Counted from the stretch's first letter, positions 7,537 through 36,590 are shown. The stretch: 64,000 bases of DNA from Nitrospiraceae bacterium (GCA_046351115.1 JAXLZB010000001.1:2990570-3054569), one strand, 5' to 3'. The notes: a model not told the origin generated them from the letters alone. Program-made: numbers and translations.

Positions 7537-7556
7537 CTCCGCAGGAGGTTTGAGCT

Positions 7557-19579: not shown

Positions 19580-22500
19580 ATGTCGTTCTGGAGCCGGTCG
19601 CACAGCCTCCAGCGGAAGATCATTGCAGCCATCGTGCTGGTGGGTCTCCTACCGGTCTGTTTGTCCCTCGTACTGACCTATATCGAAGAGCGCCGGGCGC
19701 TTCGGGAAACGCTCGGGGCCAACTTTAAAGAAGTGGCCGTTGAGACGGCCCGCCGGATCGAGATGCAAGTGAGCCGGGGGGTCAATGAGGCCCAGCAGCT
19801 CGCGGCCACGCCGTTCCTTCGCACTGCGGTCACGGAAGCCAACCGCACCTACCACGAAAAAGACGAGAAGGCGATCCAGTCCATGATCAAGGACTGGCAG
19901 CAGCGTTGGCGGCAGCGTGACAAGAAAAGCGAATTTCCCCTCTTCATCAACCGGATCGTCACGAATTATCTGATTCGGTGGCACGATATCCGGAAGGCCG
20001 ACTACGTCGGCATTTTCGTGACCGACAATCACGGCGCGTTGGTCGTGAGTTCCATCCCGCAGGTCGAATACTATTACGGCAAGACGAATTGGTGGCAGGC
20101 GATCATGCATCGCCGTGGCCAGGTCTATGTGGGCGACATCGCCTTCGATCCTTCCTTCGGGACTCACGTCGTCAACGTCACGGCTCCCATTCTCGACGAT
20201 GAGCAGCGCGCAACGATCGGGGCTGTCACGGTTTTGCTTCGCCGCGACACGCTTTTTCACTCGGTCGCCGAAGCCACCGTGGGACGGTCGGGGCATGCCA
20301 TGCTGTTCAGTTCGGACGGTGCGCCTCTGATCTGTCCGATCTTGGCGCCCGAGGAGCATTCCGTGACTCCGGAACTGGTCACAGCCTTGGGCTCCAGCCA
20401 GGCCGGGTGGGCGACCGCCGCCAATGATTCTCACGGCGCACAACAGGCCTTGGTTGGCTACGCCCCGGTTCGGCTCGGCGAGGGCTTGGCGCCGGAAAGC
20501 ATGGGGGGGAAGCGATGGGTGGCGTTCGTCCGTCAGGATCCCGAGGAAACGTTCGCACCCCTTTCCCAGTTGGTCCTCAAAGTGACCGTCTATGGACTAT
20601 GCGTACTGGCGGTCTTGCTCGTCACAGGGTTTGCCGTCGCGCGGCGGATCGCCCGTCCGATCGGGTTGTTGCACGAGGGCGTGCTGCGTATCGGCAGCGG
20701 GAGCTTGGATCAGCGGCTGGAGCTTCACACCGGTGATGAAATTGAGCACCTGGCCGAGGCCTTCAACAGGATGGCCGCCAACCTCCGACTCTCCTTCGGG
20801 CAGATTGAGCAGCGAATGGAGGAGGTGCGCCGACTGGAAGAAAAATATCGCGACCTGATCGAGCATTCCCCCGAGATGATCTATCAGCTCAATAAGGCAG
20901 GGCAGTTCGTCCACGTGAACAAGACGGGGCTCGACAAGCTGGGCTATGCGCTGGACGAAATGCTGAAAATGCGCCTGTGGGAGCTCGTGCCGAAGGGGCG
21001 GGAAGCCGATATTCTCGTCTATCTCGAGCGACTAGTCTCGCAGGGGCGGAGTTCGATTGAAACCGTCTTCCTGGCGCGAGACGGCCACCCGATCGACGTG
21101 GAAATCCATGCCACGGCCTTGTTCGATAGCGGCGGCGGCGGTTTGGTGCATTCCCGCGCGTTCGTGCGCGACATCACAGAACGACGCATTTTGGAAGCGC
21201 AGGTCCAGCGGTATACCACGCAGTTGGAGCAGGCTGTCAATGAGCGGACGCAGCAGCTGGTCGCCTCGCAGGAACGCTACAAGGCCCTGTTTGATCTGGT
21301 GGCCGATTCCGTCTTCATGGTAGGTGAGGACGGCGGGATTGTCGCGGTCAATAAGCGTGAAGAGCAGGCCTTGGGGTATGCGGCGGCGCAGGTGGTCGGC
21401 CGCAGCATCTTTGACGTGGTGGATGTCGCCTACCATGACGAGATGAAGGCGTTGTTGGCGGAGATCATCGGCGGGACGCGGCGTGTGCCGACGCAGGAGG
21501 TTACGGTCCACGACGCCGCGGGGGAAGAGCGGCCGGTGGAAATGGATTTGATTCAGGTGCGCGGCAGCGACCATACCTGGGTCATGGTGCAATTGCGCGA
21601 CATTACCGACCGGAAGCGGCTTGAGCGGCAGATGCAGATCTATCAGGCCGAGTTGGAAACCAAAGTCCGCGAGCGGACGCGTGAGATCGAGGAAACAAAG
21701 CAATACTTGGAGAATCTGCTCGAGAATGCCAACGACGTCATTTATACGCTCGACGGCAGTCAATGTTTCACCTATGTGAACAGCAAAATTCAGGCTTGGG
21801 GGTATCAGAAAGAGCATTTGCTCGGACGGCCCTACTTGGCGCTTCTCTCCAAGCGGCACCGCGGTAGGCGTCTGAAATCGACGTTGGATATCGGCGTGAA
21901 GCAGGTCTACGAAGTCGAGGTGCTTACGAGGACCGGGGAGCCGAGGCTGGTCATGGTCAGCGTGTCCCCGCTGCAGGGGGCAGACGGTACGATCCTGGGG
22001 GTACTGGGCATCGCGCGTGACATGACTGATACCAAGAAACTGGAACAGCAAATACGAAATTCCGAGAAGCTGGCCTCCGTCGGTAAGTTGGCGGCGGGCG
22101 TCGCCCACGAGATCAACAACCCCTTGGGTGGCATCCTCAATTGTTTGTACAATCTTCGTAAGGGCACATTGTCGCCGGCCCGTCAGGAAGAGTATCTTGC
22201 CTCGATGGAGGACGGCTTGCGCCGTGTGCAGAAGATTGTGCGCCAACTGCTCGATTTCTCTCAGCAGCACAATCCTGAGTTGGCGTTGGCCGACATCAAT
22301 CAGGTCGTGAACCGGGTGTTACTATTGACGGACCACCTGTTCAGTCCGCACCGCGTGGTCCTCGAGACTGATTTGGATCCCGACGTGCCCGAGTTGATGA
22401 TCGATCGCCACATGATGGAACAGGTCTTGATGAACCTGGTGTTGAATGCGATTCAAGCAATGCGCACGGGTGGATTGCTGAAGATCCGGACCTTCGTGGA

Positions 22501-22756
22501 TGGGACGAATTGCATGGTGGAGATCAAGGACACGGGGTGCGGTATTCCCGCTTCCGTGCTGCCGAAGATTTTTGATCCGTTCTTCACCACAAAAAGCGAG
22601 GGGGAGGGGACAGGTTTGGGCCTATCCGTCAGTTTGGGCATCGTAGAGCGGCACGGCGGAAAGATTTTCGTGGACAGCGAAGTGGGGCGAGGCACCACCT
22701 TTACGCTGTCGATTCCGTTGACATCTGAACGTTACGCCATCGGGAGGTTTTCGTGA
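19580..22756 (+). CDS. Sensor histidine kinase (Cache-like periplasmic domain, HAMP, multiple PAS, HisKA, HATPase)
   Basis: Two TM helices flank a ~300-aa periplasmic domain. HAMP (ARPIGLLHEG...EAFNRMAANL), repeated PAS-like modules, H-box AAGVAHEINNPL, G-box GEGTGLGLS. Confidence 0.9.
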   Translation: MSFWSRSHSLQRKIIAAIVLVGLLPVCLSLVLTYIEERRALRETLGANFKEVAVETARRIEMQVSRGVNEAQQLAATPFLRTAVTEANRTYHEKDEKAIQSMIKDWQQRWRQRDKKSEFPLFINRIVTNYLIRWHDIRKADYVGIFVTDNHGALVVSSIPQVEYYYGKTNWWQAIMHRRGQVYVGDIAFDPSFGTHVVNVTAPILDDEQRATIGAVTVLLRRDTLFHSVAEATVGRSGHAMLFSSDGAPLICPILAPEEHSVTPELVTALGSSQAGWATAANDSHGAQQALVGYAPVRLGEGLAPESMGGKRWVAFVRQDPEETFAPLSQLVLKVTVYGLCVLAVLLVTGFAVARRIARPIGLLHEGVLRIGSGSLDQRLELHTGDEIEHLAEAFNRMAANLRLSFGQIEQRMEEVRRLEEKYRDLIEHSPEMIYQLNKAGQFVHVNKTGLDKLGYALDEMLKMRLWELVPKGREADILVYLERLVSQGRSSIETVFLARDGHPIDVEIHATALFDSGGGGLVHSRAFVRDITERRILEAQVQRYTTQLEQAVNERTQQLVASQERYKALFDLVADSVFMVGEDGGIVAVNKREEQALGYAAAQVVGRSIFDVVDVAYHDEMKALLAEIIGGTRRVPTQEVTVHDAAGEERPVEMDLIQVRGSDHTWVMVQLRDITDRKRLERQMQIYQAELETKVRERTREIEETKQYLENLLENANDVIYTLDGSQCFTYVNSKIQAWGYQKEHLLGRPYLALLSKRHRGRRLKSTLDIGVKQVYEVEVLTRTGEPRLVMVSVSPLQGADGTILGVLGIARDMTDTKKLEQQIRNSEKLASVGKLAAGVAHEINNPLGGILNCLYNLRKGTLSPARQEEYLASMEDGLRRVQKIVRQLLDFSQQHNPELALADINQVVNRVLLLTDHLFSPHRVVLETDLDPDVPELMIDRHMMEQVLMNLVLNAIQAMRTGGLLKIRTFVDGTNCMVEIKDTGCGIPASVLPKIFDPFFTTKSEGEGTGLGLSVSLGIVERHGGKIFVDSEVGRGTTFTLSIPLTSERYAIGRFS

Positions 22757-24207
22757 AAGGGTTTCGGGTGTTGATCGTCGATGATGAGCCGCTTATGCGG
22801 CTCTCTATGGTGGACGCCCTCGAAGGGATTGGGTGCGAGGTGACGGCCGCCGCGACGGGGACGGAAGGCCTGCATGTATTGGCTACGCGTCCGTTTGATC
22901 TCGTCATCACCGATTTGCGTTTGCCCGGGGCCGACGGGTTGACGGTCCTCAAGACCAGCAAGGAACGGTCTCCCACGACCGAGGTGATCGTGATTACGGC
23001 GCATGGCTCGGTCGATACGGCCGTGGGGGCGATGAAGCTCGGCGCCTATGACTACGTGACGAAGCCCTTTCAGATGGATGAACTGCTGCTAGTGGTCGAA
23101 CGTGCGGGCAAGATCCTGGGCCTGCGCCGGGAAAACTTGGATCTCAAGGAGACGCTGGAAGAACGATTCAGCTTCGGAGGAATTCTCGGGCGCAATAACT
23201 ACATGCGGGCGTTGCTCGAGAAGATAAAGCTCGTAGCTGCCACCGATTCGACGGTCTTGATCATCGGTGAGAGCGGCACGGGGAAGGAATTGGTGGCCAA
23301 TGCTCTGCACCAGAACAGCCCTCGTCGAGATCAGCCGCTCATCAAAGTGAGCTGTGCCGCATTGCCGGAAACCTTGTTGGAAGCCGAATTGTTTGGACAT
23401 GAGAAGGGTGCCTTCACCGGCGCGCTTCGCCAGCGGCGCGGCCGGTTCGAGTTGGCTCATCGCGGCACGTTGTTCCTGGATGAGATCGGTGAAATTTCTC
23501 CCGTGGTCCAAGTCAAACTGTTGCGCGTGCTACAGGAGCGCCAGTTCGAACGAGTCGGGGGAAATGAGACGATTGAAAGCGACGTGCGCGTGGTCTGTGC
23601 GACGCAGAAAGATCTCCGTAAAGAAGTGGCGCACGGCCGGTTTCGAGAAGATTTGTACTATCGGCTCAATGTCGTCCAAATCATCGTGCCGCCGTTGCGG
23701 GAACGCCGAGAAGACGCGCTGCTGATTGCCGAGCATGTGTTGCAAACGCGTTCGACGAAGCTCTGTAAGAGTCTCAAGGGATTTGCGCAACCCAGCCGGG
23801 AATTGCTCCTGAAATACTCGTTTCCCGGCAACGTGCGTGAATTGGAGAACATGGTGGAGCGCGCCGTGGCGCTCGGGCGCGAGGGGGAGTCGGTGCAGCC
23901 CTGGGACCTGTGCGGATTTCAGTCCTGTCCGTATCTCGGAGGGGCGCCGCAGGAATCCTGCGGGTTCTGTAGCGAGGGACTGGCCATTGGCACGAAGCGC
24001 CCGGCAGAGGGCGTGACCTCGACGCTCGCGGCCGCCCGCGAACAATTTGAGCGGGACTTCATCCTGGAGGTGCTGAAAAAGGTTGATGGGAGCCGCACCA
24101 ACGCCGCCCATCTCCTGGGGCTGTCGCGAAAGGCTTTGTGGGAGAAGTGCAAACGCTACGGCATCGCATCCGCAAGGGAGGAAGCCGACGATGACGACGG
24201 CTCGTGA
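22753..24207 (+). CDS. Sigma-54-dependent response regulator (NtrC family)
   Basis: REC domain ([11 protein letters not shown]), Walker [15 protein letters not shown] loop, C-terminal Fis-type HTH. The GTG start overlaps the kinase stop (GTGA). Confidence 0.9.
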
Positions 24208-24218
24208 CTGAACTGAGG

Positions 24219-24241
24219 GCGGCCCCATCATAAGGGGCCGC
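24219..24241. terminator. Hairpin between convergent genes
   Basis: gcggcccc / ggggccgc 8-bp GC stem with a 7-nt loop, between the regulator stop and the WD40 stop. Confidence 0.4.
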
Positions 24242-24269
24242 ATCGCTCGCAACGGTTACCGAGGACTGA

Positions 24270-25361
24270 CTACTCGGCCGATTCCGGCCCGCCTTCCCAG
24301 AGCTTCACCGTGCGATCCCACGAAGCACTCGCCAATCGTAGGCCGTCCGGTGAGAAACACAGGCCCCGCACAGGCCCCGAGTGGCCTTTGAGTGTTCGGA
24401 AGTTTCGCCCAGTGGAGATGTCCCAGAAGCGAATCGTCTGGTCGTCGCTCGCGCTGACCAGCACCTTGCCGTCCGGTGAAACCGTCAGGGCGCGGACCCA
24501 GCCGGTGTGGCCCCGCAGCACTCTGAGTTCGGACATGGCGGGCATTTCGAAAAAGCGAATGGTCGTATCGCGGCTGCCTGTGATCAATAATTTGGCGTCC
24601 GGCGTAAAGGTCATAGCCCCGATCCAGTACTCCATCGGCTTCTGGAATCCGCCGTCATCTTCGATGAAGTAGCCTCGGGTTTCCGTCGAGTCTTCAGCCG
24701 ACTCCTGCCAATGGCCGTTGTGCAGGATCTTTTCTTCGCCGCTGGGCAACACTTCCCAGATCTTGATCTTACCGATGTCGCTGCCGCTGGCCAAGTGGAT
24801 GCCGTCGGGAGAAAACGCGACACACACCGACCAATGGTGGTCGTACTGATCTTTCCCGAGCAAAGTCATCAACTCAGTGCCGGTCGTGACTTCCCAAATC
24901 TTGATGTCCTTATTGTGGCTACCGCGGGCGAGCATCAAGCCATCGGGCGACAATGAGAGGCTGCAGACATTGTGGTCGTAACGCGTGAATAGCAGCTTGG
25001 TGGATTCGCCCGTCTTGGGGTTCCACAAACGGATGGTGCGATCCTCGCTTCCGGTCGCCAGGGTTTGACCATCAGGTGTATACACGATGGCGCGAATATC
25101 ATTAGTATGGCCGCGGAGTGAGCGCAGGAGACGCCCGGTCTCGATATCCCAAATGCGTACATAGCGATCAACGCCGCCACTGGCGAGCGACAAGCCGTCC
25201 GGTGCGTAAGCGACGGCCCACACGCCATGAGAATGACCGCGAAACGTATTCAATTCGCGGATGCCGGCCTTCCAATGCTCGAGATAATCGACGGGTGCGG
25301 CGCCGGGCGCACCCGTCTGAGTGGGCTGCGGAGTTGGAGGAATTGTGGCTTGGTTGCTCAT
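24270..25361 (-). CDS. WD40-repeat beta-propeller protein
   Basis: Seven or so repeats of the GH...SPDG...ASGS.D.TI(K/R)(I/L)W(D/E) type. Confidence 0.85.
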   Translation of the reverse strand: MSNQATIPPTPQPTQTGAPGAAPVDYLEHWKAGIRELNTFRGHSHGVWAVAYAPDGLSLASGGVDRYVRIWDIETGRLLRSLRGHTNDIRAIVYTPDGQTLATGSEDRTIRLWNPKTGESTKLLFTRYDHNVCSLSLSPDGLMLARGSHNKDIKIWEVTTGTELMTLLGKDQYDHHWSVCVAFSPDGIHLASGSDIGKIKIWEVLPSGEEKILHNGHWQESAEDSTETRGYFIEDDGGFQKPMEYWIGAMTFTPDAKLLITGSRDTTIRFFEMPAMSELRVLRGHTGWVRALTVSPDGKVLVSASDDQTIRFWDISTGRNFRTLKGHSGPVRGLCFSPDGLRLASASWDRTVKLWEGGPESAE

Positions 25362-25425
25362 AGCGATGGTTGCCTCTGGCGGAGCCCCGGCTCGTGTCGC
25401 CGGACGCCTGTCTGTCCCGCGTGGT

Positions 25426-25455
25426 TTGCAAATCCCGCGAGGGGGTTTGTATAAT
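25426..25455 (+). promoter_or_regulatory. Candidate sigma-70 promoter (TTGCAA-N18-TATAAT)
   Basis: -35 at 25426..25431 and an exact TATAAT at 25450..25455, about 100 nt upstream of ATG 25557. Confidence 0.35.
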
Positions 25456-25556
25456 TCTCGGTCCCAGTCTGGGATCGTAAGAGAGTGAGCCGGGGCAAGT
25501 CAAGCGCACCGCCCCCCAGATCGCATTATCCAGGCCTCTCGACAAAGGAAGGTATT

Positions 25557-26588
25557 ATGGCAACGGGAGTCGAGGTATCCAGGTCACAGATGGAAATTCG
25601 CTTTCAACCCGCCTTACTGCAGGAGGTCATCGATTCGTTCATCGAGAAGACCGAGCGCGAAGGGGACCCGACCTACTATAAAGAGTTTCATGAGCTGGCA
25701 GATCCGATCTATGAAAAATTCACGCTCGATGATCGCGAGGCGGAATTCAAGAAGCTGTATCAGTATCTATTCGGGACCTGGGGATTCTCTGACATCATCC
25801 GAGACGCCTTCAACGAATACCCTGAGCTCAAACAGCGGGTCGGGATCGTCCTGGTCAAGGGCGTCCTGAAAGAAGACCAAGAGGGCGTCGACATTCTTCG
25901 CAAATGGGGATCGGTGGAGCACGAACTGGCCAAGAGCTTCGAAGAGAAGGGGCTCAAGGGCGTGGGGATCAAGCTGATTCCGCGGCGCTTCTATGACCCG
26001 GCTCTGACGCGCTACTGCCGGCATGAGTTGATGCATATCCACGATATGCTAGACCCGGCATTCGGCTATGATCCTGATACGAGGGTCGGTCAAAATCCCG
26101 GCGAAGAAACACTTATTCTGCATCGCTATCGCGTGTTGTGGAATCTGAGCGTCGACAGCCGGCTCATTGCCGCCGGGCGCGAGCCGATGCTTTCCAAAGA
26201 GGATCGCTTCAAAGAATTTCGTTCCTGGTATCGCAAGATTCCACCCGCCCAGCTGAAGTCGGTGTTCGAAGGCCTCTGGCAAATGAGCTATTTCACCCAC
26301 TCCGAACTGGTGGAAATGGCGACGGATACCTTGCGCGTGATGGACCATGCGGTCGACGTCGAAGGCGGCGAGGTGCCCGAGACGACCAACAAAGTCATGC
26401 TGATGCCGGGGTTCCCTTGTCCGCTCTGCCGCTTTCCGACCTACTCGTGGGTCGAGGATTTGGGGACAAAAGTGGAAAGCTACGTGCTGGATTTCATCCG
26501 CGAGAACCATCCGGGCTGGGACATCGAGTTCGGAGCGTGTGATCGCTGCGTGGAAGTGTATAAGCTGCGCGCCGACGGCGTAATGTAA
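25557..26588 (+). CDS. Conserved hypothetical protein with an HExxH motif and a C-terminal CxxC...CxxC zinc ribbon
   Basis: ORF track 25485..26588; ATG 25557 follows aaggaagg. HELMH at 26022..26036. C-terminal CPLC and CDRC. Confidence 0.7.
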   Translation: MATGVEVSRSQMEIRFQPALLQEVIDSFIEKTEREGDPTYYKEFHELADPIYEKFTLDDREAEFKKLYQYLFGTWGFSDIIRDAFNEYPELKQRVGIVLVKGVLKEDQEGVDILRKWGSVEHELAKSFEEKGLKGVGIKLIPRRFYDPALTRYCRHELMHIHDMLDPAFGYDPDTRVGQNPGEETLILHRYRVLWNLSVDSRLIAAGREPMLSKEDRFKEFRSWYRKIPPAQLKSVFEGLWQMSYFTHSELVEMATDTLRVMDHAVDVEGGEVPETTNKVMLMPGFPCPLCRFPTYSWVEDLGTKVESYVLDFIRENHPGWDIEFGACDRCVEVYKLRADGVM

Positions 26589-26601
26589 CAACGAGGACAC
26601 G

Positions 26602-27207
26602 GTGGGGGGCGATCCCAAATACGGACGGCGAGACTTCCTCAAGGATTCGGTCGTCTCGGTTGCAAAGGCCGCGCGGGAATTTTCTATCCACAAAGATGCG
26701 GTGCGTGAGCCGGTGGCTGCACCCCCGCGGGTCGATTGGCTGCGCCCGCCTGGAGCAGTGGCGGAGGCTCTCTTCCTCGAACGGTGCACCAGTTGTGGCG
26801 ACTGCGTGAAGGCCTGCCCTCCGGCCGCGATTGTGACGGATGCAGCCAATGGCTCACCGGTGATTTTCCCGAGTGATACCGCCTGTGAGCTCTGTGAGGA
26901 GTTTCCCTGTATTGCGGCTTGTGCGACGGAGGCACTCCTGCCGGTCGAAGATCTATTTGCGGTCCGCATGGGCGTCGCGGCGGTTTCGCACCGGGTCTGC
27001 ACGGCAGGGCAAGGATGCCATGCGTGTGTATCGAAGTGTCCGACTGACGCGCTCTCGACCGATTTCGAGGCGTTTCGCCTCGTCGTATCGGCTCAGCGTT
27101 GTGTCGGTTGCGGACTCTGTGAGCAGGTCTGTAAAACGGTCAATGATCATATTGCGATCAAGGTGACCCCGGCCAGACATTGTGCGACAGGCGCGGTCGG
27201 ATTGTGA
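26602..27207 (+). CDS. NapF-like polyferredoxin (four 4Fe-4S-type Cys motifs, Tat-like RRDFLK at the N-terminus)
   Basis: GTG start after gagga. Motifs CTSCGDCVKACP, CELCEEFPCIAAC, CHACVSKCP, CVGCGLCEQVC. RRDFLK is followed by only a weak hydrophobic region. Confidence 0.8.
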   Translation: MGGDPKYGRRDFLKDSVVSVAKAAREFSIHKDAVREPVAAPPRVDWLRPPGAVAEALFLERCTSCGDCVKACPPAAIVTDAANGSPVIFPSDTACELCEEFPCIAACATEALLPVEDLFAVRMGVAAVSHRVCTAGQGCHACVSKCPTDALSTDFEAFRLVVSAQRCVGCGLCEQVCKTVNDHIAIKVTPARHCATGAVGL

Positions 27208-27309
27208 CGATTATGGCCGCCGAACGGTCTCGCAAGATGAGTGAACAGCGCCCTCAGCGTGCGAAAACCAAGATACTTGAGGCAAGTGATAGGGGGGACC
27301 AGTTCATGC

Positions 27310-27338
27310 TTGACATCCCCGCCACCTTTACCTATCAT
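27310..27338 (+). promoter_or_regulatory. Candidate sigma-70 promoter (TTGACA-N17-TATCAT)
   Basis: -35 at 27310..27315 and -10 at 27333..27338, within the 221-nt gap before the chaperone gene. Confidence 0.4.
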
Positions 27339-27428
27339 ACGCCTCCTGTGTCGCAGGACTCTTGTGTTGTGTGGTCGGTGTTTGAGATCGAAACACGCAA
27401 CATATTGAGGTGAGGAGAAAAAGTACGT

Positions 27429-28406
27429 ATGACCTCGAAACAAGTCGTGCAATCAACCTCCCCCTCCTCCACGGTCGTGGCTCCCACGCAAAGCGTCGCC
27501 ATAAAAGATTCCCCATCGGTTGAGCGTGCATTGAATCGAAGCAAAGTCTATTTGCTTCTGTCTTGGAGCTTGCTCTATCCCGAAGACGATGAATTCCTGG
27601 ACTATTTGCAGTGCGGAGAATTCGTCGAAGACGGGCGGGCGGCACTCGAGGCGTTGCGTGTCGCGCTGGACGGGATCGGCGGAGAGCGGGCAAAGCAGAA
27701 GATCGGCCTGCTCAACAAGCAGTTCGATTTGATCGAGAAATTGGTCGCGGCTGAATGTGTCAATTGGCAGCTGAGCGATCTGCAGACGGAACATCGCCGG
27801 GTCTTCACCAACGTGATCACGTTGGATTGCCCGCCGTATGAAACGTTGTTCGGGAACGATCACGTGTTTGCGCAGTCCCATGTGATGGGGGACATTGCAG
27901 GGTTCTACAAGGCGTTCGGCGTCGAGCTCTCGAAGGACATCCATGAGCGCTTGGACCATCTGAGCGTCGAGTTCGAATTCATGCATTTCCTCACCTACAA
28001 GGAATCGTACTCGCGTTGCCACGACGGTCTGGAGAAGACTGAAATCGTCGTAGATGCGCAGAAGAAATTCGTCAAGAATCACATCGGTCGATGGGTGCCG
28101 CTGTTTTGTCGCATGCTGGCCAAGAAGGCGGACGCGGGCTTGTTCAAAATTATGGCCGATTGCATGTCTGAGTGGATGGATTTTGAGGTCGCCTTCCTCG
28201 GGGTGAATCCGCAACCCTACTCCGAGGCGGATTATCGGCCGGCTACCTTCAATGCTCCGGAAGGTCAAACCTACGAGTGTGGGGCGCAGGATCAAGGGAA
28301 TGAGCTGAGCATGTTGCTGAGCGAGGTCGGGGCCCAGTCTTTCATGGACCAGAAGGACAAAGAGAAAGACGGCAAAAAAGATGAGGGTCCCGTCGGAACT
28401 GCGTAG
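27429..28406 (+). CDS. TorD/NarJ/DmsD-family redox-enzyme maturation chaperone (NxrD-like)
   Basis: LLSWSLLYPEDDEF, EHRRVFT and DHLSVEFEFMHFL motifs typical of the family. RBS ggtgaggag. Confidence 0.8.
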   Translation: MTSKQVVQSTSPSSTVVAPTQSVAIKDSPSVERALNRSKVYLLLSWSLLYPEDDEFLDYLQCGEFVEDGRAALEALRVALDGIGGERAKQKIGLLNKQFDLIEKLVAAECVNWQLSDLQTEHRRVFTNVITLDCPPYETLFGNDHVFAQSHVMGDIAGFYKAFGVELSKDIHERLDHLSVEFEFMHFLTYKESYSRCHDGLEKTEIVVDAQKKFVKNHIGRWVPLFCRMLAKKADAGLFKIMADCMSEWMDFEVAFLGVNPQPYSEADYRPATFNAPEGQTYECGAQDQGNELSMLLSEVGAQSFMDQKDKEKDGKKDEGPVGTA

Positions 28407-28506
28407 GGGTTCACGTTTGTTGGGTGCTGTGCGTTTGGGTTTTCAGTAGGCGTTATAAGGTCTCAGTTCTTTAATCCATTAATCTTTTTAGAGGAGGGCA
28501 TACGCA

Positions 28507-29460
28507 ATGAGACTGATGCAGACACGCAACAAGCGTTTGGTGTTTGGCATTCTGCTCTCTGCCCTTATCGTCGGCGTTATGTTGACGATCGGGCAGGTGC
28601 CCCTCGCGGTCAGCCAACCGGTGACCATTCCCGCGAAGGCGATCAAGGGGCCTATCCCAATGGACGGTGCGAACCCCATTTGGGAAGGAGTGCCAGGGGT
28701 CATTATCCCGCTGAGCGGGCAGACCATCACCACGCCGATGCACCCGAATATTTCGGTGAAGTCGGTGTTCGTGAAGGCAATGACCAACGGGAAGGAGCTT
28801 GGGCTGCGCTTGGAGTGGAGCGACCAGACCAAGAATGACACGGCGATCGGACCGCAGGACTTCCGCGATCAGACCGCCATCATGTTCCCGGTGAACACCG
28901 CCGGGGCGCCGCCGTTCCAGTGTATGGGTCAGTCCGGTGGCACCGTCAATATTTGGCGGTGGAACGCGGAGTGGCAGAAGGACATCGGAAAGGACAGCGC
29001 AGGGTTGTGGGACGTGGACGACCAGTATCCTGGCATCTTCTGGGACTACTACTTCGAAGAGCCGGCCGGTGGGGTGACCTACCCGGATCGTATCGGTCGC
29101 AGCCTTGGCCCATTCAACTCCGGTATCTGGTCTGGCAACATCATGTCTGACCCGACGCTGCGGGTCAGCTCCGTCGAGGATCTGAGCGCCAATGGGTTCA
29201 GCACGTTGACCACGCAGGCCCATCAGGATGTGATCGGGAACGGCGTGTGGGAACCGTCAGGCTCCGTCAAGGGCGGTGGTTACACTGGCCCGACCTGGCG
29301 TGTGGTCATTAAGCGTTCGCTGGAGACCAGCGATGCGAACGACACCCAGTTCAAGGCGGGTATGTCTGTGCCCATCGCGTTCGCGGTGTGGGACGGCTCG
29401 AACATCGAACGGAACGGTATGAAGGCGCTCTCCACCTGGTTCACGCTGAAGTTGCCGTGA
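28507..29460 (+). CDS. NxrC-type haem-b subunit candidate (EB_dh domain), exported
   Basis: Signal peptide. LRLEWSDQTKND, NIWRWNAEWQKD, WRVVIKRSL, AFAVWDGSNIERNGMKALSTW. Confidence 0.8.
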   Translation: MRLMQTRNKRLVFGILLSALIVGVMLTIGQVPLAVSQPVTIPAKAIKGPIPMDGANPIWEGVPGVIIPLSGQTITTPMHPNISVKSVFVKAMTNGKELGLRLEWSDQTKNDTAIGPQDFRDQTAIMFPVNTAGAPPFQCMGQSGGTVNIWRWNAEWQKDIGKDSAGLWDVDDQYPGIFWDYYFEEPAGGVTYPDRIGRSLGPFNSGIWSGNIMSDPTLRVSSVEDLSANGFSTLTTQAHQDVIGNGVWEPSGSVKGGGYTGPTWRVVIKRSLETSDANDTQFKAGMSVPIAFAVWDGSNIERNGMKALSTWFTLKLP

Positions 29461-29528
29461 TCCAAGTGGCCTGAGTGAACTCAAGCCTCTCCCGGCGTCG
29501 GGTGAGGCAGCGTTCCTAGGTCGTAACT

Positions 29529-29575
29529 GAAGGCCCCGAATCAGTGTCCGCAAGGGCATGTGGTTCGGGGCCTTC
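29529..29575 (+). terminator. Hairpin after the NxrC-like gene
   Basis: gaaggccccgaa / ttcggggccttc 12-bp stem with a 23-nt loop, followed by gtgcatttt. Confidence 0.4.
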
Positions 29576-29735
29576 GTGCATTTTGAGCATGCAAGTGCAT
29601 TCGCTTGTGCACAGTCGAGGAGCGGAGCTTTTGGCGGTGCGCACGGTTGCATTTGAGCGGAGACGGAGTGTATAAACCGAGGTGGGGTAATGTCATCAAC
29701 ACACTGATTTTTCCATCACATATAAAGATATATTT

Positions 29736-31517
29736 ATGAAAGTGTCATTGCTGTTTCCTCCGACCTGGCACCCATCACAACCATATCTGAGTCTTCCTTC
29801 TCTCACCGGTTTTCTCGCTCAAGCAGGCGTCAAAAACGTCTCACAGCGTGACCTTGGCATTGAGCTGTTGGATAAGGTATTGACTCAGTCTTTTGCGGAA
29901 GGGATCTATCAGCAGCTTGTCGATAAACAGCAGGGTCTCGAGCGAACTCGGGCCGGTGAGACTGGGCCAGGCAGCGCCGAGCACCTCTCGCGGGTTGTTG
30001 AGTCCCTGGACCGGTTTCCCTACCTGCACGAACGCATCGAGCTGGCCAAAGAAACGTTGCGTGGGGAGGGGTTCTACGATATCGAGGCTTACCGCAACAG
30101 CCTGTTCTTGATCGATAAATGGCTCGAAGTGGTGTCGTCACTCTACTTTCCCACGCGTTTGACGGTGGTCGATAACCAATTCGGTGACTATTCGATTTAT
30201 TCATCCAAGGATTTGACCAAAGTCATTCGCGATGATACGCAGAACCCCTATATTGGATTGTTTCGGGAGTTGTTCCTGCCATCTATTCTGGCGGACCGCC
30301 CTGACCTCGTCGGCGTGTCGATTACGGCCACTTCGCAGATCATCCCTGGGCTGACCTTGTGTCGTTTGCTCAAGGAGGCCGCGCCGGATGTCCATATTAC
30401 GGTGGGCGGCAGCATCTTCACACGCCTGGTGGACAACTTGCGCCGATGCCAGTGGCTCTTCGACATTACGGATGATTTTGTAGTGTTCGAAGGCGAGACG
30501 GCTTTACTGGAACTCGTCAACCAAATGGAAGGGAAACGGGATTTCAGCAAGGTGCCGAATCTGATTTACCGCCAGAACGGCAAGATCACGGTCAACCAGC
30601 CCTTCTATTCTGAAAACATCAACCAGCTGACCGCGCCCAATTATGACGGGTTCCCGCTCGATCTGTACTTATCGCCGGAGCCCGTGCTACCCGTGCAATT
30701 TTCGCGTGGCTGTTACTACAAAGACTGCGCGTTCTGCGCGCTCACGCTGGATCATCAAAACTTCCGGCAGCGTGACCCCGGTAAGACGGTGGACGATTTG
30801 GAATGGCTTAAGGCACGTTATGGCGCCGAGTTCTTTTTCTTTACCGACGAATGCTTCGCGTTGTCGCCGACCAAGCGCCTCTGTCAGCAGATGATCGATC
30901 GACAATTGAACGTGAAGTGGACGTGCGAGCTGCGTTTTGAAAAGAACTTGAGCCGCGAACTCCTGACGCAAATGCGCGATGCCGGTTGTTTGAAGATCGT
31001 CTTTGGTCTGGAATCCTTCAACCAGCGGGTAATGGATTTCATGAAGAAGGGGATCAAGCAGGAGTGGGTCCGCCGAATCGCTGACGACTGTGTGGATCTC
31101 GGCATCGCCATGCACTGCTATGTGATCGTCGGGTTCCCGACCGAGAAGGAAGAGGAAGCGCTGGAGACGATGAACTTTATCGTCGAGAACAAGAAGCTGA
31201 ACGAGTCCTATGGCTTTTCCTGCCAGCCCTGCTTGTTCGATTTGGAGAAAGAAGCGCCGATCATGAACGATCCGGGCAGCTATGGCATCCGGCGCATCAT
31301 GCGGCCTTCGTCTGAAGACCTCAGTCTGGGGTTCTTCTACGAGGTGCAGGAAGGTATGACGCCGCCCCAGGCGGAACAGCTGTATCAGCACGTGTACGAG
31401 AAGATCAGCGAAGTCGTGTGCGAATTGCCCTTCAATTACTCGATGGCAGATGGGTTGCTGTACATTGCTCGGGAAAAATCACAAGCCGTGCGGGTGCCGC
31501 AACCTGCCGGATCGTAG
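29736..31517 (+). CDS. B12-binding-domain radical SAM protein (class B)
   Basis: N-terminal LLFPPTWHPSQPYLSLPSLTGFL (B12-domain type). Cys triad SRGCYYKDCAFC. No obvious SD before the ATG. Confidence 0.85.
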   Translation: MKVSLLFPPTWHPSQPYLSLPSLTGFLAQAGVKNVSQRDLGIELLDKVLTQSFAEGIYQQLVDKQQGLERTRAGETGPGSAEHLSRVVESLDRFPYLHERIELAKETLRGEGFYDIEAYRNSLFLIDKWLEVVSSLYFPTRLTVVDNQFGDYSIYSSKDLTKVIRDDTQNPYIGLFRELFLPSILADRPDLVGVSITATSQIIPGLTLCRLLKEAAPDVHITVGGSIFTRLVDNLRRCQWLFDITDDFVVFEGETALLELVNQMEGKRDFSKVPNLIYRQNGKITVNQPFYSENINQLTAPNYDGFPLDLYLSPEPVLPVQFSRGCYYKDCAFCALTLDHQNFRQRDPGKTVDDLEWLKARYGAEFFFFTDECFALSPTKRLCQQMIDRQLNVKWTCELRFEKNLSRELLTQMRDAGCLKIVFGLESFNQRVMDFMKKGIKQEWVRRIADDCVDLGIAMHCYVIVGFPTEKEEEALETMNFIVENKKLNESYGFSCQPCLFDLEKEAPIMNDPGSYGIRRIMRPSSEDLSLGFFYEVQEGMTPPQAEQLYQHVYEKISEVVCELPFNYSMADGLLYIAREKSQAVRVPQPAGS

Positions 31518-31585: not shown

Positions 31586-32707
31586 ATGTCCGCTGTTGCG
31601 ACGACAATCGAGCGTGCCACGGGCCGGGTCGAAGACCAGGGGTTGCTGTTCGAGTACACCATCAAGATGGTGCTGCTTGTCGGCTTTCTCGAACTGGTGC
31701 TCTACCGGCTGGTGTCGCGCTTGGGCATGCATATCAGTAAGATTGCCGCTCAACATGAGTGGGTCGGGACGACATTCCGTTGGCTGTCGTCGATCGGCTT
31801 CGTCTTGCTGAACGTGGTGGCGATCTTCGTGTTTCTTGCCTTGCTGGTGCTCCTGCTCAATCGGATTAAAGCCAAGGGCCTGAGCGGCTATAATGTGGTT
31901 ACTCTGCCCTGCGTCGGGCTGCTCTTGGTATTGACGGCGGCATTTCTCGTCGTCCCTCCGGGGATGTTGGGATCGATTGCCTACAACGTTGTCACCGTGA
32001 TCGCCCTGACCGCACTCATGCTGGAATATTGGTCGCTGCACCGCGACCGGCTCCAACGTATTCTGGCAGTCACGTACTATTTCGGCATCTCGGGATGGCT
32101 GTATTACCAAATCGTTTCCACCGCGTACGGCTGGATGGGAGCGTTGGCGGCTCCTCCGCTCGTCTACGAAGCGAACCGGATCGGTGAGGCCTTGATGGTC
32201 ATTGCCAGCATGCTGGTCTTCTGGGCTTACGGACGCGGCCTGTCGTTTCGGACCAGGAACCGCCAACAGCGCCGTCGGGCCGTCTGGTTCTGGTCCGTGG
32301 CGGGTGTGGTATTTTTCGGGCTGTTGTTCATGGATTATTTCCTCAGCATCTACAATCCCGTGCTGGCCACCTCGATGCGTAAGGCAGGCGAGGGGATCAG
32401 TTGGATTTTCCAGATGGGCATGGGCTACACATTCTATCTGCCCTTCGCGTTTTATGTGGCGGGTCTGCTGTGCTGGTCCTACACGGTCATCCGATTGGTG
32501 ACGATGGGACGTGTGGCCGGATATGGTCTCGGGCTCATGTTCATCGCGGGGTATGCCTTGTTGGTATCCAGTCTGACGCTGATGGTGATATTGGGTGTCA
32601 TGTTGCTCACGCTCGATCGTCCGAGGGGAGCCGTGGCCGAACAAGAGTCAGTGCCGAATGAGCCGCTGGTTGGAGCGCAAGAATCGCTCGCCGGGGGGCA
32701 GGTCTAG
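31586..32707 (+). CDS. Polytopic membrane protein of unknown function
   Basis: 373 aa with about 9-10 hydrophobic helices. RBS gggag. Confidence 0.7.
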   Translation: MSAVATTIERATGRVEDQGLLFEYTIKMVLLVGFLELVLYRLVSRLGMHISKIAAQHEWVGTTFRWLSSIGFVLLNVVAIFVFLALLVLLLNRIKAKGLSGYNVVTLPCVGLLLVLTAAFLVVPPGMLGSIAYNVVTVIALTALMLEYWSLHRDRLQRILAVTYYFGISGWLYYQIVSTAYGWMGALAAPPLVYEANRIGEALMVIASMLVFWAYGRGLSFRTRNRQQRRRAVWFWSVAGVVFFGLLFMDYFLSIYNPVLATSMRKAGEGISWIFQMGMGYTFYLPFAFYVAGLLCWSYTVIRLVTMGRVAGYGLGLMFIAGYALLVSSLTLMVILGVMLLTLDRPRGAVAEQESVPNEPLVGAQESLAGGQV

Positions 32708-32736: not shown

Positions 32737-33549
32737 ATGGACGAACAGAAACACACAGCCGGTGCAGAGCAGGGTAGTGCGGCGGTCGATCCTGGCGATC
32801 AGCCCTTGAGCCCCGACGAGGAAATTGCCGAGATTGAAAAAATGCTGGCAACCGAGCCGGATGATTTCCAGGCGCGGTGCCGGTTGGGCGAACTCTATTT
32901 CAGCAAGGGCCGATTGGATGATGCCCTGACTGAGGTCAAGAAGTCGATCGAAATGGCCGAGGGGCTCCGCACCGAAATGAACCGGTCGCTGGCCATGTAT
33001 TACTCCAACCTCGGTACCATCTACGCCACCAAGGGTATGATGGAAGAGGCGGAAACCGAATTCAAACACGCGTTGGAGGTGCACGCATACGACGTGCTCG
33101 CGCTCTTCAATCTGGGGCGCGTCCAGGCGGACAAGAAGAAATTCATGGACGCCAAAGGGTATTATGAACGGTTAGTCGAGATCACGCCGGACGATCCCAT
33201 CGCGTGGTACAACCTGGCCGGCGTCTACGTCGAACTCGACAACCCGCAGGTGTCCGATTACAACACGATGGATATGGCGATCCAGTGTTATCTTCGTGTC
33301 TTGGAACTGGATCCGAAACACTTGGAAGCAAGCTTCAAATTGATGGAAATTGCCCTCAACCACAAGAAGACCGATTTGGCCGTCAAGGTGATGGAAAGTG
33401 CGGTCGAGCACAGTCCGGATGAGCCGCTGGCGTATTACAATTTGATCAGCGTGTACGACAAGTGCAAGATGTTTGAACAGGCCGAACAAGCCCGTCAGCG
33501 TCTCAAAGAGCGGTTTGCCAAGAAGGCCAAAGAGGGTGCCACAACCTGA
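32737..33549 (+). CDS. TPR-repeat protein
   Basis: Repeated 34-aa TPR-like units (LGELYFSKGRLDDAL, LGTIYATKGMMEEAE, YNLAGVY, YNLISVYDKC). Confidence 0.8.
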   Translation: MDEQKHTAGAEQGSAAVDPGDQPLSPDEEIAEIEKMLATEPDDFQARCRLGELYFSKGRLDDALTEVKKSIEMAEGLRTEMNRSLAMYYSNLGTIYATKGMMEEAETEFKHALEVHAYDVLALFNLGRVQADKKKFMDAKGYYERLVEITPDDPIAWYNLAGVYVELDNPQVSDYNTMDMAIQCYLRVLELDPKHLEASFKLMEIALNHKKTDLAVKVMESAVEHSPDEPLAYYNLISVYDKCKMFEQAEQARQRLKERFAKKAKEGATT

Positions 33550-33573: not shown

Positions 33574-33852
33574 ATGTTTGGGAGTCTGGGTTTTACAGAA
33601 TTGATCCTGATTCTGTTCATCGTGCTGATTATTTTCGGCGCGGGAAAATTGCCGCAATTAGGTGAGGGTCTCGGAAAAGCGATCAAGGGCTTCAAGAAGT
33701 CGGTGCACGAGGCGGACGCCATCGAAGCTGAGGCGCAGGCGCAGCAAGCGGCGACCCAGGCTCAGGCCATCCAAGCTCCGGCCCCGCAGATGCAGGTGCC
33801 CACGGTGGAGCAGCAACCGGCCGTCGCGGCTCCCCCGGCATCCCACGCTTAG
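33574..33852 (+). CDS. tatA: Twin-arginine translocase subunit TatA/E
   Basis: [42 protein letters not shown]. Low-complexity A/Q-rich tail. Confidence 0.9.
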
Positions 33853-33899: not shown

Positions 33900-35150
33900 A
33901 TGGATACTGAACTGCAGTTGGCGTCCGGGTACATCGAGACCTTCGCTGGAAACGGCAAGGCCCGCAGCACAGGCGACGGCAAGCGCGCGGTGAAAGCGGG
34001 GATCCCGCTTCCTCACCATGTGGCTCTCGACCGGGAAGAGCGGTGGCTCTATTTTGCCGAATCCGGGTCGGACCGCATTCGACGGGTCAATCTAGCGGAA
34101 GGAACGGTCCACAACTTTGCCGGCATCGGCGAGACCTGCTACAGCGGAGACGAGGGGCCATGCGGCGAGGCTGGGCTGTATCTTCCCCTTGATGTCGCGT
34201 TCGACTCCCGGAACGACTTGTATATTTGTGATTCCGGCAGCAACCGAATCCGCAAGGTCGATCACGAGACCGGAATCATCACCACCGTCGTCGGGACCGG
34301 CGAGCACGGGTTCAACGGGGATGGTTTGGCGCTCGAGGTCAATCTCACGTGGCCGGCCGCGATCGCCTTCGATGCCGAAGACGTCATGTATATTGCCGAT
34401 ACGCAGGCGCACCGCATTCGTCGGTTCGATTCCCGAACCGGTCGGGTGGAGACCATCGCTGGAACCTGGACGTCGGAAGATGAGGCCCGCGAGCAGCCGC
34501 TTGTGGCGCGCAATCTCGTGGTGTTGTCCGGAGATGCGATCGGCATCGACTTCAGCGACGACAACGGCTGGCTCATGCCGGTTTGTTCGGACGGACTCGA
34601 CCTGTCGCTCTACCTGGACGACGGCCGGCCGGCCGTAGAGTCTCGCCTCTATGACCTGGTCGGGATTGCAGTGGACCGCGCGGGGGATGTGTATGTGGTC
34701 GACAAGGCCAGCAACCGCGTGCGGCGTATCGACCGGAATACCGGCATCATCACGACGCTGGCAGGGGTGTGTCGGTATGGGTTTGACGGCGATGGAAAGC
34801 CTGCGGCCAAGTCCATGCTGCATGCACCGGAAGCCATCGTATTCGACGACCACAATCATGCCTACGTGTCGGACACCGGAAACCATCGTGTGCGCAAGAT
34901 TGAAGCCGGCACGGGGCTGATCAGCACGGTTGCAGGTAACGGTGACAGTGGTTATGAAGACAAGAACATGGGCGGCTGCGGCGCCGCTCGGTTTGTGGCC
35001 AAAGATGCTGCTGGTGCGTTGAAGCACGGTGACGGCTTGCTGGCGGTTGAGGCGGTGGTCAATTCCCCCGTCGGACTGGCGATCGACCGGCAGGGTCAGC
35101 TGTATATTTGTGAGCGAGGGGAAAACAAGATTCGTCGGGTCAAGCTGTAA
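33900..35150 (+). CDS. NHL-repeat beta-propeller protein
   Basis: Repeated (D/E)SG(S/N)(N/H)R(I/V)R(K/R)(V/I) units. No signal peptide seen. Confidence 0.8.
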   Translation: MDTELQLASGYIETFAGNGKARSTGDGKRAVKAGIPLPHHVALDREERWLYFAESGSDRIRRVNLAEGTVHNFAGIGETCYSGDEGPCGEAGLYLPLDVAFDSRNDLYICDSGSNRIRKVDHETGIITTVVGTGEHGFNGDGLALEVNLTWPAAIAFDAEDVMYIADTQAHRIRRFDSRTGRVETIAGTWTSEDEAREQPLVARNLVVLSGDAIGIDFSDDNGWLMPVCSDGLDLSLYLDDGRPAVESRLYDLVGIAVDRAGDVYVVDKASNRVRRIDRNTGIITTLAGVCRYGFDGDGKPAAKSMLHAPEAIVFDDHNHAYVSDTGNHRVRKIEAGTGLISTVAGNGDSGYEDKNMGGCGAARFVAKDAAGALKHGDGLLAVEAVVNSPVGLAIDRQGQLYICERGENKIRRVKL

Positions 35151-35231: not shown

Positions 35232-36074
35232 ATGGGGCGAATGACATCGGTCCCAATTTCGCGAACACCTCTATTGGCATTGCTGGCTGGTCTCTTCGTG
35301 GTCGCCCTGTTGCTGGGAGGATTCGGTATTCCCATCGTCAGTTCCGAGGGCATGATCATCCGTGCACAAGCGGTTTCGGGAGATGTGCCGCTCGCTCCGG
35401 AAGATCCCGCCTGGCAGAAGATTCCTCCCATGACATTGCCCTTGAGCGGGCAAATCATCACCCGTCCGGTCTGGCCCGAACCTACTGCGCGCGCATTGAC
35501 CGTGCGGGCGGTTCATAATGGAACCGATATTGCGTTTTTGCTCGAGTGGCAGGACAACACCAAGAATGATCGACTGACTCCAGGAACGTTTCGCGACGGT
35601 GTTGCGATCGGGCTTCCCCTCGGTGACGCCCCGGCCTTCTTCTGCATGGGGCAGCTTGATCACTACATCAACATTTGGCACTGGAAGGCAGATTGGCAGA
35701 GTGACATCGACCGGCGCGCCGCGCGGACCACAGAAAAGGACAAGTCGGGAAGTGGTGAGCCTCGGCGTTTCGAAGTGATCCCCAGACGCGCCTCCTCCGT
35801 CGAGGACTTGATCGGAGGCGGTTTCAGTACCCTGACGACGAAGGAAAAGCAGGGTCGGGTTCAGGGTAAAGCTTACTGGAAGGATGGAACCTGGCACGTT
35901 GTGATGCGGCGCCCATTGTCTAGCGAAGAGCAGGACAACGAAGCCAAGTTGATCCCTGGGCGAATCCAGGCCGTCTCTTTCGCGGTATGGAACGGTGAGA
36001 ATAAGGAGCGCAACGGGCAGAAGGCCGTTGCTCCCTGGTTCCAGCTGTCGTTGGACCCAAGCGTGAAGAGTTAA
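35232..36074 (+). CDS. NxrC-type haem-b subunit candidate (EB_dh domain), second paralogue
   Basis: Signal/anchor. FLLEWQDNTKND, NIWHWKADWQSD, WHVVMRRPL, SFAVWNGENKERNGQKAVAPW. Confidence 0.8.
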   Translation: MGRMTSVPISRTPLLALLAGLFVVALLLGGFGIPIVSSEGMIIRAQAVSGDVPLAPEDPAWQKIPPMTLPLSGQIITRPVWPEPTARALTVRAVHNGTDIAFLLEWQDNTKNDRLTPGTFRDGVAIGLPLGDAPAFFCMGQLDHYINIWHWKADWQSDIDRRAARTTEKDKSGSGEPRRFEVIPRRASSVEDLIGGGFSTLTTKEKQGRVQGKAYWKDGTWHVVMRRPLSSEEQDNEAKLIPGRIQAVSFAVWNGENKERNGQKAVAPWFQLSLDPSVKS

Positions 36075-36573: not shown

Positions 36574-36590
36574 GAGGAGCACCGGGTCGC

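Follow-up and report, generated by a model that had tools for sequence, protein, structure and literature searches.

Nitrite oxidoreductase (NXR) makes most of the nitrate on Earth and, to our knowledge, has never been produced heterologously. Accessory proteins of other exported enzymes provide points of comparison: NapF of Escherichia coli and Rhodobacter is a cytoplasmic poly-ferredoxin acting on pre-NapA, and FdhE is a CxxC-bearing accessory protein of formate dehydrogenases exported by the twin-arginine translocation (Tat) pathway. The composition of the Nitrospira NXR is unsettled. Here, we describe a computational analysis of four genes, encoding an uncharacterised protein (ORF1), a ferredoxin, a TorD-like chaperone and a candidate gamma subunit (NxrC_2), which lie within a 64,000-nucleotide stretch of DNA from a Nitrospiraceae bacterium (GCA_046351115.1, JAXLZB010000001.1:2990570-3054569), hereafter the window. 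An earlier reading of this DNA, made from the sequence alone (the sequence-only reading), had proposed that the four genes supply assembly factors and a gamma subunit for NxrAB.

Several elements of such a system have been reported. The nxrC candidates of Nitrospira are unlinked from nxrAB, and a TorD-like chaperone is encoded beside one of them (PMC6606698; Lücker et al. 2013, PMC3578206). The NXR clusters of Kuenenia, Nitrospira and Nitrospina have in common a conserved 'putative zinc finger' protein (PMC6606698, PMC3578206), and 'NxrD' of Nitrospina and Nitromaritima is placed among the TorD/NarJ/DmsD redox-enzyme maturation proteins (PMC5029188, PMC3578206). ORF1 has not been assigned to NXR in the literature and is not in the curated NXR-gene table of PMC6606698. 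The arrangement of the genes and the main idea about them have largely been published already. Some parts do not appear to be clearly described elsewhere: how large the ORF1 family is, that it lacks any relative of solved fold, and with what frequency it is linked to nxrA and torD in different phyla; that its HExxH motif varies within the family; how strongly the twin-arginine peptide of the ferredoxin, which has no export-competent h-region, is constrained; and that the locus has two footprinted promoters and ends in a conserved structured 3' region.

We conclude that the four genes probably constitute the accessory and gamma-subunit locus of the periplasmic NXR of Nitrospira. The proposed supply of assembly factors and a gamma subunit is supported by the linkage of ORF1 homologues to nxrA outside Nitrospira and by transcriptomics of N. 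moscoviensis. The locus would thereby define a minimal accessory set, consisting of ORF1, the ferredoxin, TorD and TatA, together with the most likely gamma subunit. The present analysis adds a quantification, across phyla, of the link between the ORF1 family and nxrA, and the observation that the twin-arginine peptide of the ferredoxin is more constrained than its iron-sulphur (Fe-S) domain.

Arrangement of the four genes and linkage of ORF1 homologues to nxrA

Open reading frame (ORF) calling places four same-strand genes within the interval 25557-29460, as first proposed, and nxrB and nxrA were likewise found on the opposite strand (Table 1); 22.2 kb separates position 29460 from 51665, the end of nxrB nearest the locus. 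NxrA, part of the presumed client enzyme, begins MHVSVSRRQFLKVTVGTVAAIAVA, a complete Tat signal comprising SRRQFLK plus an h-region. The window belongs to a lineage I Nitrospira. At ORF1 the chromosome of Ca. N. defluvii matches it at 92%, and a protein identical to ORF1 is also present in assembly GCA_019637075.1.

A scan of genome contigs returned only close Nitrospira relatives, and the distant contexts of ORF1 were obtained from protein look-ups and a metagenome scan. The metagenome scan contributed 80 loci, and the combined set held 57 unique non-Nitrospira loci, 48 of them with at least 300 nt of downstream sequence. The ORF1 homologues in these loci are 26-43% identical to the window protein. 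In 38 of the 48, the same strand carries, no more than 400 nt downstream, the start of an NxrA homologue that is 52-65% identical to the window NxrA; an NxrC-like gene starts within the same distance in 3 more, and TorD lies directly upstream of the ORF1 homologue in 11 of 47. The nxr operons bearing an ORF1 homologue include those of Planctomycetota and Dehalococcoidia, and a protein match was also found in an NC10 bacterium. In a Planctomycetes metagenome-assembled genome (MAG) the order is Rrf2, cytochrome c/EB_dh, ORF1, NxrA, small ORF, NxrB, TorD; in a Kuenenia sp. MAG it is TorD, ORF1, NxrA-like; and in a Dehalococcoidia MAG it is bd-like oxidase, cytochrome c, cytochrome c, NxrB, TorD, ORF1, NxrA, EB_dh. 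Two more metagenomic operons carry the ORF1 homologue directly upstream of an nxrA-like gene. Judged by this neighbourhood, ORF1 would thus be a core accessory gene of the NXR clade; other phyla encode TorD and the ORF1 homologue within the nxr operon, and in Nitrospira the operon appears to have been split.

Within Nitrospira, synteny was followed in 80 species-representative genomes, which share the order WD40 (minus strand), ORF1, ferredoxin, TorD, NxrC_2. The ferredoxin gene comes next after ORF1 in 79 of the 80 genomes, TorD was found in 72 loci (68 loci are counted as reaching at least 1.9 kb downstream), and nxrC_2 is present in 65 of the approximately 67 loci that are long enough. Across the genus, NxrC_2 and ORF1 have the highest identities (88-95% and 87-93%, respectively) and the ferredoxin the lowest (61-77%). 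Synteny had been suggested as a check on the sequence-only reading: the order is kept in Nitrospira, and ORF1 recurs in nxr operons of Planctomycetota including Kuenenia sp.

The four genes might instead not form one module, with only TorD and nxrC_2 serving NXR, and ORF1 and the ferredoxin gene forming a separate operon that neighbours them fortuitously or works for a different Fe-S or molybdenum enzyme. The separate promoters, a 7- to 57-fold difference in expression among the four genes, the omission of ORF1 from the curated table cited above and the absence of the ferredoxin from most non-Nitrospira nxr operons are in line with such a division. It is nevertheless very unlikely, given that about 85% of the loci outside Nitrospira have the ORF1 homologue next to nxrA or torD, that practically all 80 Nitrospira species retain the order of the four genes, and that no terminator lies between the ferredoxin gene and torD.

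Other features accompany the ORF1 homologues outside Nitrospira. In 10 of 47 loci the gene immediately preceding the ORF1 homologue and nxrA encodes an Rrf2-family (NsrR-like) regulator (the Rrf2-upstream loci are L091, L092, L094, L095, L099, L110, L157, L160, L167-L169 and L177), a placement that suggests control responsive to nitric oxide or nitrite in these operons; Nitrospira has no Rrf2 gene at the position upstream of ORF1. A small cysteine-free ORF of 87-112 aa separates nxrA from nxrB in loci L087 and L093-L095 (for example, L094 13386-13652) and is absent from the 114-nt gap between nxrA and nxrB in the window. Finally, one lineage (L090 4573-4857, L115, L135) has the order NHL, ORF1, Mrp/ApbC/NBP35-type Fe-S carrier ATPase, ferredoxin homologue, bd-like oxidase, with B12/radical-SAM and membrane-protein genes near ORF1. 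Its full-length ferredoxin homologue is 38-39% identical to the window protein and has an RRxFFKE..VAK N-terminus. This arrangement hints that ORF1 and the ferredoxin may act in Fe-S delivery.

The syntenic block of Nitrospira extends beyond the four genes and comprises a kinase, a sigma-54 regulator, the four genes, a B12/radical-SAM protein, a membrane protein, a TPR protein, TatA, an NHL-repeat protein and NxrC_1. In the non-Nitrospira contig L090, the ORF1 homologue likewise has counterparts of the radical-SAM, membrane and NHL genes as neighbours. The sequence-only reading did not mention tatA, the second nxrC paralogue or the alt-nxrC cluster of the window.

Table 1. Positions of the four genes and of other features in the window
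Feature	Positions	Strand	Description
ORF1	25557-26588	+	343 aa; predicted cytoplasmic, HExxH and C-terminal Cys4 ribbon; uncharacterised nxrA-linked family
Ferredoxin (ORF2)	26602-27207	+	201 aa; four [4Fe-4S] motifs, N-terminal twin-arginine peptide
TorD/NarJ-family chaperone, NxrD-like (ORF3)	27429-28406	+	325 aa; PF02613
NxrC_2-type haem-b subunit candidate (ORF4)	28507-29460	+	317 aa; EB_dh, N-terminal Sec-type signal/anchor
nxrB	51665-52954	-	presumed client enzyme
nxrA	53069-56512	-	presumed client enzyme, full Tat signal
Promoter P1	25426-25455	+	TTGCAA-18-TATAAT, 10/12; predicted to serve ORF1 and ferredoxin
Promoter P2	27310-27338	+	TTGACA-17-TATCAT, 11/12; predicted to serve TorD-like gene
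Structured 3' region after nxrC_2	29468-29575	+	hairpin 29529-29575, then U-rich stretch
B12-binding radical-SAM methyltransferase-like gene	29736-31517		conserved downstream block
Polytopic membrane protein without family	31586-32707		conserved downstream block
TPR protein	32737-33549		conserved downstream block
tatA	33574-33852	+	TIGR01411 63.8 bits, cut-off 53.9; present in syntenic loci
NHL-repeat protein	33900-35150		conserved downstream block
Second EB_dh paralogue, NxrC_1-type	35232-36074	+	30.9 kDa; rival gamma candidate
Dihaem-c/EB_dh fusion, alt-NxrC type	9959-11800		third gamma candidate in window
Cytochrome bd-like oxidase	5537-7471		in alternative gamma subunit cluster (5537-11800)
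Cytochrome c	7557-8873		in alternative gamma subunit cluster (5537-11800)
Kinase and sigma-54-dependent response regulator	19580-24207		Cache/PAS histidine kinase (1058 aa) and regulator (484 aa)
WD40 gene	24270-25361	-	divergent from ORF1
Two multihaem cytochrome c genes	36531-39194		455 and 423 aa; c554/MtrC-like motifs
Sigma-54 response regulator	56966-58402		adjoins nxrAB

ORF1, the ferredoxin and the TorD-like chaperone

ORF1 contains HELMH at residues 156-160, CPLC at 288 and CDRC at 328, in agreement with its initial description as an HExxH/zinc-ribbon protein. Nearly all homologues have 332 aa and begin at the second methionine, and the ATG at 25590 is therefore the probable conserved start (332 aa). 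The protein has no Pfam or NCBIfam match, even at E<=10, and a profile search recovered 1,081 clusters at 50% identity. AlphaFold2 modelled it with a predicted local distance difference test (pLDDT) of 87 over the full length and 93 over the N-domain. Foldseek comparison of the full-length and N-domain models with the PDB gave nothing significant, the top hit being a putative zinc peptidase (4L7A; E=0.24-0.28, TM ~0.2), and the best match of the ORF1 profile among PDB sequences was only oligoendopeptidase F (E=0.16). The possibility that ORF1 equals kustd1699, the gene that opens the nxr cluster of Kuenenia, was ruled out, kustd1699 being a blue copper protein.

Residue conservation was counted over 138 family representatives. 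The four cysteines (CPLC, CxRC), which are predicted to form a Cys4 ribbon, are kept in 98-99% of these sequences, W195 in 100%, and D163, R202 and F169 in 99% each. Conservation within the HExxH motif is 96% for E157, 87% for H160 and 75% for H156. A zincin would be expected to conserve both histidines and the glutamate across the family together with a third ligand, and this pattern was not found; E183, considered as the third ligand of a gluzincin, was ruled out at 38% conservation. Moreover, a Planctomycete member in which VELTR replaces HExxH still lies directly upstream of nxrA. The motif is thus not family-invariant and a member lacking it remains linked to nxrA, from which it follows that a canonical zincin protease is probably not the conserved function of ORF1; the variable motif argues against an obligate protease, and a metal-binding scaffold seems the most likely role.

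A different reading would make ORF1 a regulator or a zinc metalloprotease that controls the expression or turnover of nxr, for example by cleaving a regulator or the NxrA signal, rather than an assembly factor. HExxH is present in most members of the family, the similarities to M91 and M3 peptidases and to the putative zinc peptidase structure, although weak and non-significant, point the same way, ORF1 is the first gene after the Rrf2 regulator in the 10 loci described above, and its transcript level is low, as for a regulator. We regard this reading as unlikely: in addition to the incomplete conservation of the two histidines and of E183 and the nxrA-adjacent VELTR member, no DNA-binding domain was detected in ORF1 and no significant match to a zincin fold was obtained.

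The ferredoxin gene begins 13 nt past the ORF1 stop codon. Its product has cysteine clusters at residues 62, 95, 133 and 167 and the motif GRRDFLK at residues 8-14, within the N-terminal peptide YGRRDFLKDSVVSVAKAA. The motif is invariant across Nitrospira species as YGRRDF[LF]K, and in the 29 alignable species residues 7-24 are 98.7% conserved, whereas conservation falls to 73% in the Fe-S domain and 63% in the linker. In the window protein, the longest uncharged run after RRDFLK is SVVSVA, with the charged residues K, R, E, K and D after it; across Nitrospira species the longest uncharged run after the twin-arginine motif is usually 6-7 residues, with a maximum of 11, before charged residues follow. 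These short runs indicate that the ferredoxin has no export-competent h-region, a trait in which it is closer to NapF than to NapG. Ferredoxins linked to ORF1 in other lineages keep a like peptide, RRQFFKETFVTVAK..., and the window peptide RRDFLKDSVVSVA resembles the start of the NxrA signal, RRQFLKVTVGTVA. We infer that the ferredoxin peptide docks on the TorD-like chaperone or on a pre-NxrA complex.

The sequence-only reading had called this protein a NapF-like four-cluster ferredoxin. The four clusters and RRDFLK stand, and the h-region, there described as weak, is absent; with respect to family, the protein lies nearer to NapG/MauM in profile searches and misses the NapF cut-off. Hidden Markov model (HMM) scores were 101.6 bits for NapG (cut-off 269) and 77.8 bits for MauM/NapG (cut-off 178.85; NF007012 and TIGR00397), and 61.7 bits for NapF (TIGR00402; cut-off 102.2). 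'NapF-like' is to be taken here as a functional analogy. The order of these scores is compatible with a NapG/MauM-type periplasmic carrier, exported by Tat, that together with NxrC_2 makes up a branch for electron transfer, such as one serving reverse electron flow, and is not a maturation factor. In N. moscoviensis the orthologue carries the annotation napG (PMC6606698), the twin-arginine consensus is perfect as well as invariant, and a homologue adjoins a bd-like oxidase in one lineage. Such a role is, however, distinctly unlikely in view of the short uncharged run in every Nitrospira species examined, the absence of an Ala-x-Ala site after a hydrophobic core and of a NapH-like partner among the neighbours, and the failure of the protein to reach any of the curated NapG, MauM or NapF cut-offs.

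The third protein belongs to the TorD/NarJ family, as originally assigned, scoring 70.4 bits against PF02613 (cut-off 22.2), and falls short of TIGR03482, the model for chaperones of type II DMSO reductases (78.9 bits, cut-off 152.3). It is 29-38% identical to TorD proteins encoded within the nxr operons of other phyla. The last ten TorD codons (28377-28406) form a low-complexity tail whose nucleotide conservation exceeds expectation, and these codons could embed a signal for nxrC_2 expression.

On a bolder reading, which we consider as likely as not, ORF1 founds an unnamed and widespread family, with some 1,000 clusters when grouped at 50% identity, whose members would be cytoplasmic accessory proteins specific to the NXR clade of Nitrospira/anammox type. 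This reading holds that ORF1 has a confidently predicted fold without a solved relative and a modelled Cys4 site, that its acidic (H)ExxHxxDxxD helix need not be a protease site, and that it partners TorD and, in some lineages, a NapF-like ferredoxin with a docking 'decoy' twin-arginine peptide. If this is true, ORF1, TorD and the ferredoxin are missing components for heterologous NXR assembly.

Transcription units and gamma-subunit candidates

A scan for sigma-70-like promoters over positions 24200-30000 yielded 6 sites, against 2.4 +/- 1.6 in shuffled sequences. The two candidate promoters of the sequence-only reading, P1 and P2, are its two top hits and are footprinted in 80 and 73 Nitrospira species, respectively: their hexamers are at least 80%, and mostly at least 95%, conserved (for P1, both at least 95%), and the spacers and flanks are not. 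No terminator-like structure was found between the ferredoxin gene and P2 (folding z=0.52). In the 66 aligned regions upstream of nxrC_2, only an A/T-rich TTnAAT box and a Shine-Dalgarno sequence are conserved. The 140 nt past the nxrC_2 stop codon form long hairpins (minimum free energy -73.8 kcal/mol, z=-7.55), the equivalent region has z<-3 in 56 of 61 Nitrospira species, and the structured region after nxrC_2 is likely a terminator or 3' stabiliser. Between ORF1 and the divergent WD40 gene, P1 faces a minus-strand WD40 promoter (TTGACT, 25503-25498; TACGAT, 25479-25474) within 25426-25505, and all four hexamers of the facing promoters lie in blocks that are at least 95% conserved in 80 Nitrospira species. 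The predicted starts are about 5 nt apart, so that the RNA polymerase footprints overlap and the WD40 and ORF1 units may interfere.

Expression values for the N. moscoviensis counterparts are available (PMC6606698). In reads per kilobase per million mapped reads (RPKM), NITMOv2_3627 (unknown) stands at 327 (rank ~729), NITMOv2_3626 ('NapG') at 328 (rank ~725), NITMOv2_3625 (putative chaperone) at 2,417 (rank 40), 7-fold over the ferredoxin, and NITMOv2_3624 (nxrC_2) at 18,780 (rank 2), level with the main nxrAB copy. With regard to the suggested check on co-expression with nxrAB, nxrC_2 reaches its level and the chaperone ranks 40th; ORF1 and the ferredoxin do not follow nxrAB. The shared level of the first two genes and the two successive rises after them are consistent with the P1/P2 architecture, and the tiers fit three nested transcription units ending at the structured 3' region. 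P1 would drive low-level transcription of ORF1 and the ferredoxin gene, P2 would add transcription of the TorD-like gene, and nxrC_2 is by far the most abundant transcript, having either its own promoter or a stabilised mRNA.

The four genes had also been proposed to be unlinked from the sigma-54 control of nxrAB. A scan for -24/-12 elements found nothing at or above 9/12 upstream of any of the four genes, and the conserved promoters are of the sigma-70 type. A kinase and sigma-54-dependent regulator pair, syntenic with the four genes in most Nitrospira species, lies 1.3 kb upstream of ORF1, so that the proposed independence from sigma-54 stays tentative. As for nxrAB, its proposed sigma-54 control rests on the adjoining response regulator and on the literature, and not on a clean motif: the sole sigma-54-like site upstream of nxrA (56519-56965), TGGCACGAACAGCACC at 56565, is imperfect, with a good -24 element and a displaced -12 GC.

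NxrC_2 was described at the outset as an exported NxrC-type haem-b protein, and this description is confirmed by PF09459 (104.7 bits, cut-off 33.3), by an N-terminal Sec-type signal or anchor, and by its closest solved structure, NXR-C of Kuenenia (7B04_C, E=3.8e-33). Its score against TIGR03477 is just under the cut-off (146.4 against 169.85 bits). In the alignment with Kuenenia NXR-C, the haem ligands Met155 and Lys305 of that subunit pair with Met140 and Lys306 of NxrC_2, so that both the Met and the Lys ligand are present, and the predicted masses (34.4 kDa precursor, 30.5 kDa mature) are the same as those reported for N. moscoviensis NxrC_2 (PMC6606698). NxrC_1 shares 41% identity with NxrC_2, likewise has the Met and Lys ligands and is conserved in synteny; two adjacent multihaem cytochrome c genes lie just downstream of it. 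The bd-like oxidase, the cytochrome c and the alt-NxrC fusion of the window make up a conserved cluster that has been discussed, in Nitrospira, Nitrospina and anammox bacteria, as the 'alternative gamma subunit' cluster.

With two further EB_dh genes in the window, the partner of NxrAB might be NxrC_1 or a membrane-anchored alt-NxrC, and NxrC_2 a soluble periplasmic haem-b carrier; Nitrospira NXR is reported to be membrane-associated and NxrC_2 has no transmembrane helix beyond its signal (PMC6606698). Two findings make this doubtful. The nxrC_2 transcripts equal those of nxrAB, the levels of nxrC_1 being lower by about 50-fold and those of alt_nxrC_2 by about 4-fold (PMC6606698), and the best structural match of NxrC_2, Kuenenia NXR-C, is itself a soluble gamma subunit.

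Proposed role in NXR assembly and comparison with known systems

[quoted passage not shown] The ferredoxin would remain cytoplasmic, like NapF, docking through its RRDFLK-DSVVSVAKAA peptide on the chaperone or on pre-NxrA and supporting Fe-S or redox maturation, and ORF1 would act on NxrA as a dedicated assembly or quality-control factor. Tat would then export NxrAB, and the Sec pathway would separately export NxrC_2, which would take up haem b through its Met and Lys ligands and join periplasmic NxrAB as the electron-exit subunit.

Several points weigh against assigning the locus to NXR in this way. The four proteins are known from genes and transcripts alone. ORF1 has no recognisable family or fold in Pfam, NCBIfam, the PDB or Foldseek searches, so that its mechanism is read from gene neighbourhood alone, and the ferredoxin scores higher with the periplasmic NapG/MauM models than with NapF. 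ORF1 and the ferredoxin gene are modestly transcribed (rank ~725) and do not track nxrAB levels (PMC6606698), and the 66 aligned regions upstream of nxrC_2 contain no convincing -35/-10 pair. Nitrospira NXR has been reported to be membrane-associated and NxrC_2 is predicted to be soluble (PMC6606698), and NxrC_1 and alt-NxrC are present as further gamma candidates.

The ferredoxin is like NapF in having four cysteine clusters and a twin-arginine motif without an export-competent h-region, and in being encoded among accessory genes of a Tat-exported molybdoenzyme. It differs in scoring below the NapF cut-off and higher against NapG/MauM, in lying outside any nap operon, and in that the twin-arginine peptide is its best-conserved part. 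ORF1, in turn, resembles FdhE in its predicted cytoplasmic location, its length of about 300-330 aa, its helical N-domain, its one or more C-terminal CxxC metal sites, and its genetic link to the catalytic subunit of a molybdoenzyme exported by Tat. Sequence or fold similarity between the two was not detected, and no FdhE structure is among the 50 listed Foldseek hits; ORF1 carries a single Cys4 site plus the (H)ExxHxxDxxD motif.

The third protein shares with TorD, NarJ and DmsD the PF02613 domain, the occurrence of its gene within nxr operons elsewhere and, in NxrA, a client with a Tat signal. It is longer (325 against 245-278 aa), with N- and C-terminal extensions, falls under the TIGR03482 cut-off and is encoded 22 kb from its presumed client. 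NxrC_2 has the EB_dh domain, Met/Lys ligands and export signal of Kuenenia stuttgartiensis NXR-C (7B04 chain C) and the gamma subunit of ethylbenzene dehydrogenase (2IVF_C); unlike NXR-C, it is not encoded beside nxrAB, shares the window with at least two further EB_dh paralogues, and is a candidate partner of NxrAB, known here from sequence and transcript level.

The closest systems are those of the genus itself. NITMOv2_3627-3624 of N. moscoviensis are four genes of the same order and sizes (999, 603, 972 and 951 bp), whose annotations run from a conserved unknown and a NapG ferredoxin to a putative chaperone and NxrC_2 (Mundinger et al. 2019, PMC6606698), and the N. defluvii counterpart (FP929003, ~3.24 Mb) encodes an ORF1 that is 92% identical. 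The window locus shows no difference in kind from these two loci and is their orthologous copy.

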